Below are positions 17,911-32,715 of a DNA stretch of 50,596 nt, one piece after another. A program made the translations under genes and the position numbers. Each line of letters begins with the position of its first letter. Within the stretch, counting starts at the first letter, position 1. The notes under the pieces were generated by a model. It searched no databases. It was given only the letters and a program-made list of their open reading frames with translations, and was not told the origin of the DNA. This DNA comes from Escherichia phage vB-EcoS-XT34: the sequence record OR767160; one strand, 5' to 3'.

Positions 17911-18234
17911 ATGTGTGAGAACGTGTCATTCACCGAGCCTGATGATGGCTCTACGTGGTTGAAGTTTGATTACATTCCGGCAGAGAAGACGTATAAGTCT
18001 CTGAGCCGGAAGTGTATCAGGATCCGTGGACTCGTACAGATTGGCATCGTGTTCTCTCCTGATACTGGCATGGACGACGCGCGCAAGCTCGCAAAAGAAA
18101 TTGCTAATTTCTTCGAAGATGGTAAAATCCTTTCTGTAGGTTTTATTTTTGAAGGCGCGAGCCAAAAGCCCGTGCAGAAATCCCAAAGAGGCTGGTTAAT
18201 TCCAATCCGCTTCACAGTACAATACGACGAATAA
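17911..18234 (+). CDS. tail terminator protein (candidate)
   Basis: 107-aa ORF immediately upstream of the major tail gene. Confidence 0.4.
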   Translation: MCENVSFTEPDDGSTWLKFDYIPAEKTYKSLSRKCIRIRGLVQIGIVFSPDTGMDDARKLAKEIANFFEDGKILSVGFIFEGASQKPVQKSQRGWLIPIRFTVQYDE

Positions 18235-18247
18235 AGGAGCATTAACT

Positions 18248-18919
18248 ATGGCACTTCCTAACGGTTCCCAAGTCTTTATTGAGCAGACCCGAGCAGCCAC
18301 CGAAATCGAAGCAACCGCAGTGAGTAACGCGGAAAATCCGGTGGCGACTGTTGCGTCAACCACTGGCATTGTGAAAGGCGATTACGTCCTGGTGATGGAA
18401 AGCGTATGGGCTGCATTTAAAAACCGCGTAATGCGCGTAAAAGAAGTGGTTAGCGACACATCAATCACGCTTGAAGGCGACAAGAACACTTCCACGGCTG
18501 ACCTTAACAAGTTCCCCGCTGGCGGCGCCTCCACCTTCGTTAAGATCGAAAGCTGGATTGAGATTCCATGCGTGAGCGACATCGCAAAATCTGGTGGCGA
18601 GCAGCAGTTCTATACCAAGCAGTGTCTTTCAGATGACCGTGAAAAGCAGATCCCGACCTTTAAATCTGCGACGTCCATCGCGTATACGTTCGACTTCGAC
18701 TACTCCAACCCAATCACGCAGCTTCTGATTGGTTACGACGAAGACGGCAAGACGCGCGCTATGCGAATGTTTGTACCGAAGGCAAGCTATCCGATCCGCA
18801 CCTTCTCTGGCACGCCATCTTTCGATGACATCCCTAACACGGTGATGAACGAAGATGAAACGACCGTCCTGACCATCTCGCTTGATGGCAAATACACGCA
18901 CATGAAAGAATCTGAGTAA
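18248..18919 (+). CDS. major tail tube protein
   Basis: 223 aa, followed by terminator and then the G/GT chaperone and tape measure genes (lambda V-G-T-H order). Confidence 0.6.
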   Translation: MALPNGSQVFIEQTRAATEIEATAVSNAENPVATVASTTGIVKGDYVLVMESVWAAFKNRVMRVKEVVSDTSITLEGDKNTSTADLNKFPAGGASTFVKIESWIEIPCVSDIAKSGGEQQFYTKQCLSDDREKQIPTFKSATSIAYTFDFDYSNPITQLLIGYDEDGKTRAMRMFVPKASYPIRTFSGTPSFDDIPNTVMNEDETTVLTISLDGKYTHMKESE

Positions 18920-18922
18920 TGC

Positions 18923-18948
18923 AAGGGGGCTATTGCCCCCTTTTTCTA
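18923..18948 (+). terminator. rho-independent terminator
   Basis: gggggc-tatt-gccccc followed by TTTTT. Confidence 0.65.
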
Positions 18949-18991
18949 TTTGTGATTTAATATCATCAATTCAAACAAAGAGGAAAACACC

Positions 18992-19309
18992 ATGAGCTTT
19001 AAAGTAACCCTATCTGAACGCCTGCCAGACTTCCCGCTTCCGGTTAAATTCGTATTGCCGAACGGCGTTGAAGCTTCGTTTTCATTCACTGTCAAGGCGC
19101 TAACGTCATCCGAACTTAACGCCACGCTGAAAAATGCAGAAAAACAGACTGGCGCTCAGTTTGTAAAATCCCTGGCTAGCGGGTGGGAACTTGAGGACGA
19201 GTTCAATGATGAAAACATCAATAAGCTTGTTGATAGTTACCCTGCCGTTGTTGGTGGCCTGATCTCAACCTACACTCAAGCGCTGGCTGGCTACCGAGTA
19301 AAAAACTAA
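18992..19309 (+). CDS. tail assembly chaperone (lambda G-like)
   Basis: 105-aa acidic ORF directly upstream of the tape measure gene, ending at a slippery heptamer. Confidence 0.6.
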   Translation: MSFKVTLSERLPDFPLPVKFVLPNGVEASFSFTVKALTSSELNATLKNAEKQTGAQFVKSLASGWELEDEFNDENINKLVDSYPAVVGGLISTYTQALAGYRVKN

Positions 19310-19620
19310 AACGGGCGGTCGAGCTATTATTCAGGCGAGCGCCCACCGACGCAGAACTTGAGGCATACGGATTAACCCGTGAGGACTACGACAACGAAGA
19401 TCCAGAGATATTGCAGTTCGATGAGGAAACGTACCAGTCATGGGAAGTATTCACCGCGATGCAAACGCAATGGAGATCTGCCGGAGCCGGAGCCTACGGG
19501 CTTGATTATAATGTCTTGCCTATGCTATTTCGAATCTATAAAATAGATTGTGAAGAAATGGCCTTAAATGATGTGCGTGTGATGGAAGCGGAAGCGCTTA
19601 AGCAGATGCACAAAAAATAA
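18992..19620 (+). CDS. tail assembly chaperone frameshift fusion product (lambda GT-like)
   Basis: G ORF plus the -1 frame extension ending at 19620; the track ORF 19411-19620 is the tail of this frame. Confidence 0.5.
19300..19306 (+). other. -1 programmed ribosomal frameshift slippery site A_AAA_AAC
   Basis: heptamer in correct register with the G frame two codons before its stop; the -1 frame stays open to 19620. Confidence 0.6.
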
Positions 19621-19643
19621 TAGCGCCTACGGGCGCTTTTTTC
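19621..19643 (+). terminator. hairpin plus T tract between chaperone and tape measure genes
   Basis: agcgcc-tacg-ggcgct followed by TTTTTT. Confidence 0.5.
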
Positions 19644-19656
19644 GTATGGGGGTTTT

Positions 19657-22566
19657 ATGACAGATAAATTTGCAGGGCTATCGCTTGGGGTTGACATATC
19701 CCAGGTTGATGCGGCGGTTAAATCTCTGGATGACTTATCCAGGGCGAACAACACAGCCGGAAAGAGCTTTGACAATTTCATTGATGCTGAGCAAGTAGCA
19801 AAGCAGAAGATGAAAGAGTTCAACAACGAGGTTAAGCGCCAGAAGAAAGAATTTGCCGACGTAGAGAAAGCCATTGATCCTACAATCGGAAAAATGCGCC
19901 AGTTGCAGAAGGCGAGCGTTGACCTGGATAACCTCTGGAGTAAAGGCCTAGTTCCAGACGCCGAGTTCTTCAATCTGTCAAGCATGATTGAAACTCAGAT
20001 CAATGCGCTTAACCGATCCAAGATGGCGCTTACCGAAGAAGGCCGTGCGGCTATGGCTAACTCAAAAGCCAAAGAGGCGGCAACAAAGGACGCTGACAGG
20101 TTCCTTAAATCACTGCAAGAACAAGCTAACGCTGCGACAATGACCAAGACTGAGCTTCTCGAATTGAAGGCGGCACAGCTTGGCGTATCGACTCAGGCCG
20201 CACCTTTAATTGCAGCGATGAACAAGCAGACTGTAGCGACAAATGCGGCTGGCCTTTCCGCTGGCGAGTACAAGAACGCGCTGCGCATCTTGCCAATGCA
20301 GATCACTGACGTTGTTACCTCCCTTGCTTCCGGTATGCCTGTATGGCTGGTTGCAATCCAGCAGGGCGGGCAGATCAAGGATTCGTTCGGCGGTGTTGGG
20401 AATACGTTTAAAGTTTTGCTTTCTTACCTTAATCCGGTAACGGTTGGTATGGGCGCTATGGGTATCGCACTTGCTGGCCTTGCTAAAGCTGGTTACGACT
20501 CCTACCGATCCATCACTGACATGAAAAATGCCTTGATTGAGACTGGCGGATTTGCAGCAGCGAGTGCGGCAGACCTTGACCAGATCGCAATCAAGATTGC
20601 GGATACTGGTAACGCGACTATCGGAACCGTCCGCGACATCGCTACTGAGCTTGCTAAGAGTGGGAAATATACTCAGGAACAAATCAGGAATATCACCCGC
20701 GCTACCGCTGAATGGTCAGCCGCTACAGGCCGAGCATCAAGCGATATTATTAAGGATTTCGACAAGATTGCAGATGATCCGGTAAAAGGTCTGGCTAAAC
20801 TTAATGAGCAGTACAACTTCCTTGAGAAAGGTCAGTTAACCTACATTAACGGCATCATCAAAACGAAGGGCGAAACCGAAGCTGTGACAGCGGCGACTAA
20901 ACTGTTTGCCGACACCATGGAAGAACGAATGAGCAAGATTGCAGATACTGCAAGCCCACTTGAAAAGATGTGGACTGACATTAAGAAATGGTCATCCGAT
21001 GCCTGGGGTTGGGTTGGCGATCATACGCTTGGTGCTCTAAACCTCATCATTGACGTGGTTAGCGGCACGGTGATTCAGGTAAAAATGATTCTCGCTAAAG
21101 GTGACGAATACATTTCTAACTTTATCGCATCGGCAATCAAGGCAACGCAGAGCCTGCCAGGTATGAGCGATTTCGGTAAGGACATTCTCGCAGAGCAAGA
21201 ATCAATTGTTAAAAACTCAAAAGAAACATACGACGGATTAGCAAGGGATCTTGATTCAATCAATGCGCGGGTTGAAAAGGGCGAGATGGGATACGTTGAT
21301 GCACTTAAGACTCGGCGCGACCTGCAAAAGCAATACAGCAAAGAAACAAAAGATGCTGTAGAGAAGGAAGCGAAAGCCATTGAGGAACAGAACAGGAAGA
21401 AGGCAAAGAGCACGAAGGGGGACATCACAAAAGGTGCGACCGAGCAGCTTGATAAAGAACTGTATGTTCTCAAGGCACAGCTTAAAGTTTTGGAAGATCA
21501 TAAGTCGATTAACGACAAGATCTCAAGCCAGCGTCGGGCGCTGTGGGCGACTGAGGCTCAAATCTCAATCCTACAGGACGCGCAAAGCAAGCGTAAACTG
21601 ACCAACGAGGAAAGGGCATTGCTCGCCAGTCAGCAAAAGGTGCTTTCGTTAGCGAAGGAGAAAGCTGAGCTTGGCGATCAGATTGTTAAGCAGGAGCAGA
21701 TCAATAAACTGAATGACGACTCAATGAAGTTTATCATGCAGATTGACGCAGCGAGTAAAAGCCTTAACGCAACGCGCGCAATGGGTACTATTGAGGCAGA
21801 GCGACAGATTCAGCTTGAGAAGATCCGAGCGGAGTACATGGCGAAGGGAGGCGGTCAGGATGATGAGGCTCTCAAGGAAATGATTGACAAGCAGAACGAG
21901 TATTACGCCAACGAGGATGAGAAGCGTGGAGACTGGCTTGCTGGGGCGCAAAAAGCATTTTCTGACTACGGCGAAAGCGCAATGGATATGTACGGAAACG
22001 TAGAAAACATCGCAAGCAACGCCCTGAATGGTTTAACAGACATGATGACCGAGTTCTTGATGACGGGCCAGGCCAACTTTGCAGACTTTGCAAAAAGCAT
22101 TATCAGCCAGATCATTAAGATGATCACGCAGATGGTAATCTTTAACTCACTGTCAGGGATGGGCGTCGGCAGCGGTAAGGGGTTCTCCTTCGCTAATTCA
22201 GGTTGGTTCGCCACTGGCGGCTACACCGGAGATGGCGGTAAGTACGAGCCAGCAGGAACGGTTCATAAGGGTGAGTTTGTCATGACCAAGGAAGCTACCA
22301 AGAGAATTGGCGTCGATAACCTTTATCGAATGATGCGCGGTTATGCGAATGGCGGCGTGGTTGGTGGAACTTCAAGCGGTGGCGGCGGTAGTGCAATCAT
22401 GGCTGGCGGCGTGACAATCGGAAGTATCCCTGTTAGCATCAATAACGGTAGCGATCCGAAGGGCATGGAGCAGGGCGTGAAAATGATTTTCAAGCAAATG
22501 ATTCAGGAATCATGTTCCCAGGGTGGCGAAGTTTACAATTACATCAACGGAAAAGCAGGAGCGTAA
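19657..22566 (+). CDS. tail tape measure protein
   Basis: 969 aa, long predicted coiled-coil regions, Gly-rich C-terminal part, position after G/GT. Confidence 0.85.
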
Positions 22567-22616
22567 TAAATGGCCCTAGACGTGTTCAAGTGGTGCGTAC
22601 AGGTTCAGGATGGTGG

Positions 22617-22715
22617 NNNNNNNNNNNNNNNNNNNNNNNNNNNNNNNNNNNNNNNNNNNNNNNNNNNNNNNNNNNNNNNNNNNNNNNNNNNNNNNNNNNN
22701 NNNNNNNNNNNNNNN
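22617..22715. other. run of 99 N flanked by an exact 128-bp direct duplication (assembly join)
   Basis: 22489-22616 is identical to 22716-22843. Confidence 0.9.
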
Positions 22716-22796
22716 TTCAAGCAAATGATTCAGGAATCATGTTCCCAGGGTGGCGAAGTTTACAATTACATCAACGGAAAAGCAGGAGCGTAATAA

Positions 22797-23144
22797 ATGG
22801 CCCTAGACGTGTTCAAGTGGTGCGTACAGGTTCAGGATGGTGGCGGTGTAATGACCGTCACTAATAATGACAGGCAGGTGCAGTTTGGCAATGGATTCCG
22901 CCAGGTTGCATCGTCTGGCTATAACACTGAGCGACGAGAGTACGCAATCAGTTACGTTGGCAAGGACTGGAAAGAAGTGCGCGAGTTTTTGCGATCGCAT
23001 AGACTGAAAGCCTTTGCCTTTACCCCACCGGAGGACAAGATCGGCGTCTTCCTATTGAAGCCGGACACGCTGAATACTCAGCCAATCGGTCGTGGTCTTC
23101 TTGTTGTAAAATGCACCATTGTAGAAGCCTTCACAGCGGTGTAG
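22797..23144 (+). CDS. minor tail protein (lambda M-like)
   Basis: 115-aa ORF immediately after the tape measure gene; a duplicate start at 22570 lies in the pre-gap copy. Confidence 0.55.
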   Translation: MALDVFKWCVQVQDGGGVMTVTNNDRQVQFGNGFRQVASSGYNTERREYAISYVGKDWKEVREFLRSHRLKAFAFTPPEDKIGVFLLKPDTLNTQPIGRGLLVVKCTIVEAFTAV

Positions 23145-23187: not shown

Positions 23188-23934
23188 ATGACACCTAAGT
23201 TTGAAAACGTATTGCAGGGGCTATTCCCTGGTGAGATCATGACGCTAATTGACGTTGACGGAACTAAGTTCGGCGCGCAGGTCTACAGATTCCACAACGA
23301 GAACATCCAGTTTACGCCTGAAGAGATTCTCGCAGCGACACAACCAGGCGGGAGCCTTAAGCCAAAAACAATCACCTTTCAGGGAAATGAATATGGCGCT
23401 CGTCCTTTCGGCATATCAGGCATTGACCTAAACGGTAACGGAAAGGCAGGGAAGCCACAGTTAACCCTATCGAACCTTGACAGTCGCGTATCGGCCCTTA
23501 TTCGTTCCTACAACGGCATGATGCAGGCCAAGGTGACTATCTGGATAACCTCACGAGAAATGCTCGGCAGCGACGGCAACGTTTCACCTGGTGATTTCAG
23601 GAAATACGTTTACTACGTTGAGCGACCGAACTTTGTTGATCAGAACGTTGCGCGATTTGACCTTACCTCACCATACGACATGGACGGAATCATGATTCCA
23701 CCGCGAGTTACTCAGAGTGTTTGCTTTTGGGCGCAACGTGGATGGTATCGAAGCGGACGCGGTTGCGGTTACAACGGAAGCAGGATGTTTGACAAAGACA
23801 ACAATCCAGTAACTGATCCATCTCAGGACGTTTGCGCTGGAACTGTAACGGCCTGCAAGTTGAGATTCGGGGCTGAAAACGAATTGGACTTTGGCGCCTG
23901 TGCTACCGCATCACTACAGAGAAAAAATCAGTAA
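23188..23934 (+). CDS. minor tail protein (lambda L-like)
   Basis: 248 aa with a C-terminal cluster of four Cys residues, as in lambda gpL. Confidence 0.65.
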   Translation: MTPKFENVLQGLFPGEIMTLIDVDGTKFGAQVYRFHNENIQFTPEEILAATQPGGSLKPKTITFQGNEYGARPFGISGIDLNGNGKAGKPQLTLSNLDSRVSALIRSYNGMMQAKVTIWITSREMLGSDGNVSPGDFRKYVYYVERPNFVDQNVARFDLTSPYDMDGIMIPPRVTQSVCFWAQRGWYRSGRGCGYNGSRMFDKDNNPVTDPSQDVCAGTVTACKLRFGAENELDFGACATASLQRKNQ

Positions 23935-23993: not shown

Positions 23994-24479
23994 ATGATTA
24001 ACTGGCATGATTACTTTAAGTACGATAACGGGGTTCTGATTAACATAAAGAGCAGGAATGGGGCTAAGTATATGCAGCAAGCGGGGAGGAAAAATAAATC
24101 ATCAGGCTACATTGAGGTGATGGTTAATTATAAGCGGTATCAGGCGCATAGGACTGTGTGGGAAATGAATCATGGTAAAATTCCAGAAGGAATGGAAATA
24201 GATCACATAAATGGGATTCGTGATGACAACAGAATTGATAACCTGAGGCTTGTCACAAGCAGAACAAACGACACAAACAGGGCTAAAAGCAAGGCCAACA
24301 CAAGCGGTGTCGTTGGTGTTTGCTGGGATAAAAGAAAAGGTTTATGGTTGGTTAGGATTTACGACAACAAGAAACCAGTTTTCGTTGGTTACTTTCGTGA
24401 ATGGTTTGATGCTGTATGCGCGAGAAAGTCATCGGAAAGGACTTATAATTATCATGAGAATCACGGGAGAGCGAAATGA
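23994..24479 (+). CDS. HNH homing endonuclease with AP2-like domain (copy 3)
   Basis: HRTVWEM..IDHINGIRDDNRIDNLRLVT and WFDAVCARKSSERTYNYHENHG; inserted between the L-like and K-like tail genes. Confidence 0.75.
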   Translation: MINWHDYFKYDNGVLINIKSRNGAKYMQQAGRKNKSSGYIEVMVNYKRYQAHRTVWEMNHGKIPEGMEIDHINGIRDDNRIDNLRLVTSRTNDTNRAKSKANTSGVVGVCWDKRKGLWLVRIYDNKKPVFVGYFREWFDAVCARKSSERTYNYHENHGRAK

Positions 24480-32058: not shown

Positions 32059-32715
32059 ATGCGTACATCAGAGAAATTTTCGAATGTTTCAGCCGCTCTA
32101 ATTGCAGCCAAAAAGCAGTTTGCCATCGCAAAAAAATCAGGCTTCAATGCTCACCTGAAAAGCCATTACTCAAACCTGACGGACGTTCTGGATGCGGTTG
32201 AGCCAGCACTAAAAGAGCATGACCTTATGGTTATCCAGTCAAATCTTGACACGTCAACAGAGAAGGTAATGCACATTGAGACACTCATCCTTCACAGCTC
32301 CGGCGAGTGGCTTGCGTTCCAGTACAATATGCCGATCGAGAAGATTAGCGCCCAGGCTTACGGCTCAACAACCTCATACGGTCGCCGTTACGCATTGTGC
32401 GCGGCGCTTGGAATCACTCAGAGCGATGACGACGCTGAAATCGCGAAGCGCACGGCAGCGGACTACAAAAAACTGATCGCCAACTGTGAAAAACTGGAAG
32501 ACCTCCAGGTGATCTATAAGAGCGCGAAAGGTTCGCTTGGCGCGGCGGAATGGAAGATTGCAGAAGACCACTTGCAGAAGCGCAAGGCTGAACTGAGTAT
32601 CGGTAACGCTCGCGGTTTCCAGCCAGCGAAAAAGGCAGATACTCAAAAGGTTGAAGGCAAGGTTGCAAATGCACCTTCCGAACCAGTACAATCTGAATCC
32701 ATCGAACAATTCTAA
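32059..32715 (+). CDS. erf: single-strand annealing protein, Erf family
   Basis: 218 aa with Erf-like N-terminal region, between exonuclease and SSB genes. Confidence 0.6.
   Translation: MRTSEKFSNVSAALIAAKKQFAIAKKSGFNAHLKSHYSNLTDVLDAVEPALKEHDLMVIQSNLDTSTEKVMHIETLILHSSGEWLAFQYNMPIEKISAQAYGSTTSYGRRYALCAALGITQSDDDAEIAKRTAADYKKLIANCEKLEDLQVIYKSAKGSLGAAEWKIAEDHLQKRKAELSIGNARGFQPAKKADTQKVEGKVANAPSEPVQSESIEQF

Follow-up and report, generated by a model that had tools for sequence, protein, structure and literature searches.

The phage of record OR767160, Escherichia phage vB-EcoS-XT34, is a T1-like E. coli siphophage of the family Drexlerviridae, genus Nouzillyvirus. Sequence identity of the segment is 98.7% to phage vB_EcoM-p111 and 94.8% to vB_EcoS_ESCO41, two phages that belong to this family and genus. 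Within the window (the whole stretch of DNA that was analysed, 50,596 nucleotides), the tail module runs in the order terminator, tube, G, T, tape measure, M-like and L-like, each with a Pfam match (Table 1). The counterpart of the tube gene is annotated as "major tail protein" in ESCO41. The G/T pair sits between the tube and the tape measure genes, and a consensus scan places a terminator-like hairpin followed by a T-run in the gap on either side of it. At the positions matching these two putative elements, the T1 RefSeq record carries an annotated rho-independent terminator for the first and an annotated terminator for the second. Beyond the tape measure gene, a run of 100 N with duplicated flanks (22617-22716) is an obvious assembly artefact.

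The first ORF of the pair belongs to the Phage_TAC_4 family, is also matched by phrog_569, and ends TAC CGA GTA AAA AAC TAA, that is, Y R V K N stop. The heptamer A_AAA_AAC constitutes its final two sense codons and is directly followed by the stop. The second ORF, in the -1 frame, reads ...KKLKRAVELLF... around the heptamer and LKRAVELLFRRAPTDAELEAYGL... from 19306 onward. It matches DUF1799, the family found after Phage_TAC_4 in T1-like phages. The first-pass annotation had described a G-like ORF ending in VKN-stop, a heptamer in exact X_XXY_YYZ register, and a -1 frame open from there to 19620, short of the tape measure gene; direct reading of the sequence bears out all three. It had also placed the heptamer "two codons before the stop": the location is correct and only the wording needs amending, as the heptamer itself spans the last two sense codons. 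Both halves are covered by phrog_17368, a 213-position profile of which positions 4-107 are matched by the G ORF and positions 109-211 by the -1 ORF, and which evidently derives from fused G+T proteins. A PDB sequence search with the 209-residue fusion gave no match at E <= 1.

Table 1. Features of the G/T locus and of the surrounding tail genes (positions in the window)
Feature	Position	Strand	Description
Tail terminator gene	17911-18231		Phage_tail_terminator_5, E 1.2e-16
Major tail (tube) protein gene	18248..18919	+	PF08813 Phage_tail_3, E 6.5e-48
Terminator-like GC hairpin and T-run	18923..18942	+	Putative; gap between tube gene and G; consensus scan
Shine-Dalgarno-like AGAGGA	18979..18984	+	7 nt 5' of the G start ATG 18992; read from the sequence
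G-like tail assembly (tape measure) chaperone gene	18992..19309	+	105 aa, 11.5 kDa; PF08748 Phage_TAC_4, E 7.5e-23, 81.5 bits (cut-off 21.1)
Predicted GT fusion	join(18992..19306,19306..19620)	+	209 aa, 23.7 kDa, computed
Slippery heptamer A_AAA_AAC	19300..19306	+	X_XXY_YYZ register, read directly
T-like extension, -1 frame	19306..19620	+	104 codons and stop TAA 19618-19620; PF08809 DUF1799, E 6.3e-14, 52.4 bits (cut-off 26)
0-frame stop TAA	19307..19309	+	Directly 3' of the heptamer; possible "shifty stop" component
Hairpin GGGCG-G-TCG / CGA-G-CGCCC	19313..19344	+	14-nt loop; candidate stimulator, weakly supported
Terminator-like hairpin and T-run	19622..19637	+	Putative; gap between T stop and tape measure gene; consensus scan
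Tape measure protein gene	19657..22566	+	PF06791 TMP_2, E 5.1e-66; PF09718 Tape_meas_lam_C, E 2.5e-24
M-like gene	22797-23141		Phage_min_tail, E 2.6e-18
L-like gene	23188-23931		Phage_tail_L, E 7e-47

Slip site and adjacent stop in related loci

The occurrence of the heptamer alone proves nothing: the window contains 9 copies of AAAAAAC where 12.5 are expected, which is no more than chance. A second AAAAAAC at 32467, with a stop next to it and a -1 frame open for 80 codons, was rejected as a frameshift site because its "-1 frame" is a real 218-residue gene (32059-32715) and its "0 frame" a spurious 66-residue ORF. At the tail locus, the arrangement goes beyond chance because of the Pfam identities of both ORFs, the gene order, and the conservation of a shift-prone motif at the same codons in all related loci with a placeable junction. 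The Rfam covariance models gave no match at E <= 1 within 18900-19700, and no clear upstream Shine-Dalgarno-like stimulator of frameshifting is visible at this locus.

A tblastn search with the -1 ORF matched 1155 phage records and, among the matches listed, nearly all alignments begin at query residue 1, which is the slip site. A -1 frame lacking conservation in relatives had been named in the first-pass annotation as a possible refutation; the frame proved to be conserved. About 117 related loci, many of them close kin so that the counts are not independent, were then read at the junction, comprising a first set of 37 and 80 further loci from viral contigs. In every one of them with a placeable G-frame stop, a shift-prone motif lies at exactly the last two sense codons of G. 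An identical A_AAA_AAC is present in 32 of the first 37 loci. Among the 80 viral-contig loci, whose T domains are 39-83% identical to that of this phage, 79 display A_AAA_AAC followed by TAA or TGA and the last one A_AAG_GTC-TAA. A stop codon, TAA or TGA, stands directly 3' of the shift motif in every locus examined.

The junction reads (GTA/GCA/GAA) AAA AAC TAA in this phage, Tls, T1, IMM-001, ECH1 and Dhillonvirus, and xxG GGA AAC TGA in Pseudomonas, Ralstonia and Stenotrophomonas phages. It reads GCA AAA GTT TAA in Webervirus, GCA AAG GTC TAA in Jk06 (Rogunavirus) and CAA AAG CAC TAA in Klebsiella phage RCIP0100; these last three contain single-tRNA-Lys motifs, A_AAA_G or A_AAG. A_AAA_AAC is found in enteric phages and G_GGA_AAC in those of the high-GC hosts Pseudomonas, Ralstonia and Stenotrophomonas. 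In the annotated distant relatives (Rogunavirus Jk06, Guelphvirus ECH1, Webervirus VAC70, Dhillonvirus TheodorHerzl, two Pseudomonas phages, one Stenotrophomonas phage and Klebsiella RCIP0100), the upstream ORF ends at most 3 nt from the start of the T homology, and direct reading of an unannotated Ralstonia record gives the same G/T junction. The informative point in these alignments is that the type of motif varies, yet it remains shift-prone and stays in the same register at the same position.

This point bears on how the frame would be changed. Transcriptional slippage, in which RNA polymerase would add one A in the A6 run at 19300-19305, would yield the same fusion protein, and it is an alternative route to the same type of product (PMC5009743). 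The homopolymer is indeed present at the site, and it is extended to A7 in many distant relatives (GAAAAAAAC). Efficient transcriptional slippage in bacteria, however, requires A/T runs of about 8-9, and a run of six is short by comparison. Moreover, the heptamer register is strictly conserved, a feature that matters to ribosomes but not to RNA polymerase. The orthologous sites G_GGA_AAC, GCA_AAG_GTC and CAA_AAG_CAC offer no usable homopolymer but retain a motif that would allow tRNA re-pairing. Because such sites lack the run and yet keep the codon register, slippage of the polymerase is disfavoured and appears quite improbable as compared to a ribosomal shift.

Coding constraint upstream of any start codon

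Upstream, the -1 frame ends at a stop 66 nt 5' of the heptamer. Between this stop and TTG 19411, it contains no ATG, GTG or TTG, and its first ATG is at 19459. Reading of the sequence revealed no Shine-Dalgarno-like motif before 19411, 19459 or any other start in the -1 ORF; the G and tape measure genes are each preceded by one. The 35 codons that precede the first possible start (19306-19410) nevertheless evolve as coding sequence of the -1 frame. Averaged over pairs of sequences, diversity in this frame is 0.21 at the first codon position, 0.16 at the second and 0.52 at the third; pS is 0.70 versus a pN of 0.14 against GaoY1-9D, and 0.68 versus 0.15 against L008. With dN/dS of about 0.08-0.27, the coding signature of these codons is indistinguishable from that of the remainder of the -1 ORF. 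The protein alignment of T is likewise conserved from residue 1, down to 28-37% identity, with an invariant L1. This pattern of substitution indicates that the -1 frame is under purifying selection even before any start codon, and with no start available, these codons would be reachable only via frameshifting.

These data also address an explanation without any recoding, in which T would be an independent gene translated from an internal start, either TTG 19411 (69 aa) or ATG 19459 (53 aa). Public records of the nearest relatives are annotated in this way: an ORF is called at the equivalent of 19411 in p111 and of 19459 in PH1062, while the CJ19 and GaoY1-9D records call an ORF from an ATG located 27 nt after the heptamer. 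Such starts would leave unexplained the selection and the conserved protein alignment over the 35 codons before 19411, as well as the T homology that begins exactly at the G stop codon. The match to DUF1799 starts at residue 22 of the -1 ORF and TTG 19411 is residue 36, hence initiation at this codon would truncate the domain. The candidate starts are not conserved either, the first one in the -1 ORF ranging among relatives from +18 to +207 nt. The coding signature ahead of the start, together with the lack of a Shine-Dalgarno motif, therefore rules out the truncated ORFs annotated in the Nouzillyvirus records, and an internal start ranks slightly below slippage of the polymerase in likelihood. 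Least credible of all is a sequencing or assembly artefact splitting one true G + T ORF through a base miscounted in the A-run: homopolymer runs are error-prone and the 100-N stretch mentioned above documents an artefact elsewhere in this genome, but the two-frame layout recurs in more than 100 independently sequenced genomes or contigs, some of them with a non-homopolymer slip site.

The downstream hairpin

A stem with arms GGGCG (19313-19317) and CGCCC (19340-19344) lies downstream of the heptamer and extends to TCG/CGA past a G.G mismatch. The first-pass annotation had noted this GC-rich stem about 5 nt 3' of the heptamer; the stem exists, and the spacer measures 6 nt instead of 5. Its predicted folding energy is -15.4 kcal/mol, with z = -1.34, and 22 of 200 shuffled sequences fold as well: the hairpin is not distinguishable from shuffled sequence in this genome. 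Comparison of its nine pairs across 23 relatives gives partial support: the hairpin columns are 78.7% paired versus 38-54% when slid, and four pairs are altered on both sides, TCG/CGA here being for instance TTT/AAA in Tls. RNAalifold run on the 23 relatives returned no consensus structure. Folding sequence by sequence, z values of about -3.3 to -4.8 are found in the T1/Tls-type clade alone, as compared to about -1.1 to -1.3 in this phage and ESCO41, and among 49 distinct relatives only 10, each of T1/Tls type, have a z below -2. In these per-sequence folds, a comparable hairpin is absent from GaoY1-9D/CJ19, IMM-001, Jk06, ECH1 and the distant A7 group.

The proposal that the stem acts as the stimulatory structure is backed by its spacing and by the pairing of its columns, and opposed by the z value of -1.34, the RNAalifold result and the lack of family-wide conservation. 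The hairpin is a possible lineage-specific enhancer, partly eroded in this phage, and would not be the defining element of the signal.

Proposed decoding and known systems

We estimate at about 90% the probability that this gene pair encodes tail assembly (tape measure) chaperones made via programmed -1 ribosomal frameshifting, a reading drawn from the comparative evidence described above. Most ribosomes would translate the G ORF and terminate at TAA 19307, releasing the G protein. A minority would slip back by one nucleotide on A_AAA_AAC, tRNA-Lys re-pairing from AAA to AAA and tRNA-Asn from AAC to AAA, and would then read the -1 frame to its end, yielding GT. By analogy with lambda, many copies of G and a few of GT would coat the tape measure protein through their common G domain, of which it is the presumed ligand. 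The T domain would then bring in the tube protein and thereby allow a tail of the correct length to polymerise; neither G nor GT would be retained in the virion.

The predicted junction is ...YRVKN-LKRAVE... (...AGYRVKNLKRAVE) in the case of a tandem slip, or ...VKK-LKR... (...AGYRVKKLKRAVE) if the P-site tRNA-Lys alone slips. Trypsin would leave VK, NLK and R around it, fragments that are too small, while Glu-C is predicted to release a peptide such as NINKLVDSYPAVVGGLISTYTQALAGYRVKNLKRAVE across the junction.

In E. coli, A_AAA_AAC is much less shift-prone than A_AAA_AAG (PMC5009743). With such a weak heptamer the efficiency may therefore be low, which fits the 30:1 design of the lambda chaperones. 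The position of the stop is invariant across the ~117 loci while the heptamer, the identity of the stop (TAA or TGA) and the hairpin vary; it is the only invariant accessory feature. A contribution of this 0-frame stop abutting the heptamer, as a "shifty stop" (a concept cited in PMC5009743), is plausible. It is tempting, though doubtful at this stage, to go further and see in it the part of the signal that really matters in this chaperone family. If true, slow termination would set the G:GT ratio and the hairpin would be an optional tuner, specific to certain lineages and in the process of loss in Nouzillyvirus, a design unlike that of lambda. In any case, the family offers a clean natural series on the efficiency of bacterial frameshifting, in which the heptamer type varies, the stop next to it is invariant, and only some members have the hairpin.

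The practical value of the analysis lies in annotation, as it brings nothing new biologically to the G/GT paradigm. The frameshift is already known for the T1-like phage family, and only its correct annotation is new for Nouzillyvirus. The GT frameshift is unannotated in the RefSeq records of ESCO41 and T1 and in the records of p111, PH1062, CJ19 and GaoY1-9D. The Nouzillyvirus and T1 RefSeq records contain instead a truncated ORF of 53-97 residues called "hypothetical" or "tape measure". Such ORFs should give way to a joined CDS annotated with ribosomal slippage on A_AAA_AAC.

The closest known system is the TfmA/TfmS pair of phage Tls, to which the present pair is orthologous: identity to the Tls counterparts is 45% for G and 68% for the T domain. 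G is assigned as the orthologue of tfmA, the product of standard decoding, and the predicted GT fusion as that of tfmS. The Tls GenBank record lists tfmA as the short gene and a two-part joined CDS, tfmS, as the frameshift product. Tls and other T1-like phages share the Phage_TAC_4 and DUF1799 Pfam pair as well as the flanking genes, and Tls possesses the identical GTA AAA AAC TAA slip site and adjacent stop. Tls and T1 also have the hairpin in the same nucleotide columns. It is degraded here by comparison, with the G.G mismatch, the loss of the inner CTG/CAG stem, and a z of -1.3 versus about -3.5 to -4.6 in T1 and Tls. The chaperone frameshift has been reported in the genome papers of the T1-like phages Stevie (PMC4319613) and Solomon (PMC8407766); an experimental demonstration of the GT fusion in any T1-like phage was not found in the searchable literature. 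The LAPAZ paper was considered as a further report and rejected, its "frameshift" being a host mutation.

The resemblance to gpG/gpGT of phage lambda is one of organisation and, probably, of mechanism. As here, lambda has two overlapping ORFs between the major tail and tape measure genes, the second being in the -1 frame without a start of its own, and a canonical heptamer near the end of G. The lambda gene order U-V-G-T-H-M-L is that of the present module. To our knowledge, lambda has not been reported to need a downstream structure. In lambda, described by Levin, Hendrix and Casjens (1993) and by Xu, Hendrix and Duda (2004, 2013, 2014), as cited in PMC5009743, G and GT are assembly chaperones made at a ratio of 30:1, G binding the tape measure protein and T the tube protein (PMC5009743). 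The G/GT frameshift of long-tailed dsDNA phages is widely conserved despite low sequence similarity (PMC5009743). The first-pass annotation had matched the locus to the lambda G/GT frameshift, and this holds for organisation and probably for mechanism but not for sequence kinship. No sequence homology to lambda G or T was detected, with hhalign probabilities of 0.1% (G) and 0.6% (T), and the lambda families PF06894 Phage_TAC_2 and PF06223 Phage_tail_T are not matched by the proteins of this phage. The binding partners proposed above are hence assigned by analogy only. The signals differ too: the lambda heptamer is G_GGA_AAG and the G stop comes five codons later, whereas A_AAA_AAC is found here with the stop adjacent.

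Outside phage tails, the E. coli dnaX signal, A_AAA_AAG, and those of IS-element transposases would share with this locus a tandem slippage on a heptamer rich in lysine codons, decoded by the single E. coli tRNA-Lys. A 3' hairpin, here at 6-nt spacing, is a further possible common element. Compared to them, A_AAA_AAC is a weaker variant in E. coli and the hairpin is not conserved family-wide. The purposes also diverge: frameshifting gives rise to a truncated polymerase subunit in dnaX and to a transposase in IS elements, whereas here it would supply a fixed ratio of two proteins for tail assembly.

Divergence of the chaperone domain within the genus

The chaperone locus of two phages of the same genus, CJ19 and GaoY1-9D, was compared with that of the window (locus positions ~2296-2925 versus 18992-19620). 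Their G domain, the product of the tail assembly chaperone gene, displays 46% identity to that of the window (18992-19309), which makes it as distant as the G of the T1-like phage Tls. In contrast, the T domain, encoded by the -1 frame extension, shares 77% identity; in the flanking genes, DNA identity reaches ~90%. These unequal identities suggest that the G domain may have been swapped by mosaic replacement, with a boundary lying near the slip site. The hairpin downstream of this site, a candidate frameshift stimulator, is absent from both the CJ19 and GaoY1-9D loci.

Annotation and surroundings of the G/T pair

The annotation of the predicted frameshift fusion GT is lacking in all six public records inspected: NC_047820 (ESCO41), OL449681 (p111), OQ680139 (PH1062), MT176427 (CJ19), PP971806 (GaoY1-9D), and NC_005833 (T1). 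The T ORF appears there as a truncated protein of 53-97 amino acids, is omitted, as in the ESCO41 RefSeq entry, or is mislabelled, the wrong label being "tail length tape measure protein".

Two terminator-like hairpins border the pair, and both positions match rho-independent terminators annotated in the T1 RefSeq record. Partial termination at these putative terminators could tune the levels of chaperone and tape measure relative to the tube protein.

Features of the tail gene block
Feature	Coordinates	Description
Terminator-like hairpin	18923-18942	GC hairpin and T-run, on one side of the G/T pair
Terminator-like hairpin	19622-19637	GC hairpin and T-run, on the other side of the G/T pair
Direct duplication (~128 bp), first copy	22489-22616	Repeated beyond the N-run
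N-run	22617-22716	Exactly 100 N
Direct duplication (~128 bp), second copy	22717-22844	Repeat of the first copy
HNH_3 endonuclease ORF	23994-24479	161 aa; PF13392, E 4.8e-22

The HNH_3 ORF is located within the tail block, directly 3' of the L-like minor tail gene, and is probably an inserted free-standing homing endonuclease. The duplication around the N-run makes both the tape measure C-terminus (25 residues) and the beginning of the following gene, MALDVFKWCVQVQDGG, appear twice. The N-run with its duplicated flanks looks like a scaffolding join between two overlapping contig ends, and not like biology.

An apparent slip site elsewhere in the window and slip sites in other lineages

A second AAAAAAC (32467-32473) has a stop directly 3' and a -1 frame open for 80 codons. 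Its resemblance to a frameshift site was dismissed as a coincidence: the "-1 frame" belongs to a genuine gene of 218 aa (32059-32715), and a spurious 66-aa TTG ORF makes up the "0 frame".

Three related phages possess other sequences instead of the tandem heptamer (locus positions ~1190-1204): GCA AAA GTT TAA in Klebsiella phage VAC70 (Webervirus), GCA AAG GTC TAA in Jk06 (Rogunavirus), and CAA AAG CAC TAA in Klebsiella phage RCIP0100. These sites permit re-pairing of a single tRNA-Lys only (on A_AAA_G or A_AAG), and they represent natural variants that would be of use for comparing frameshift efficiencies.
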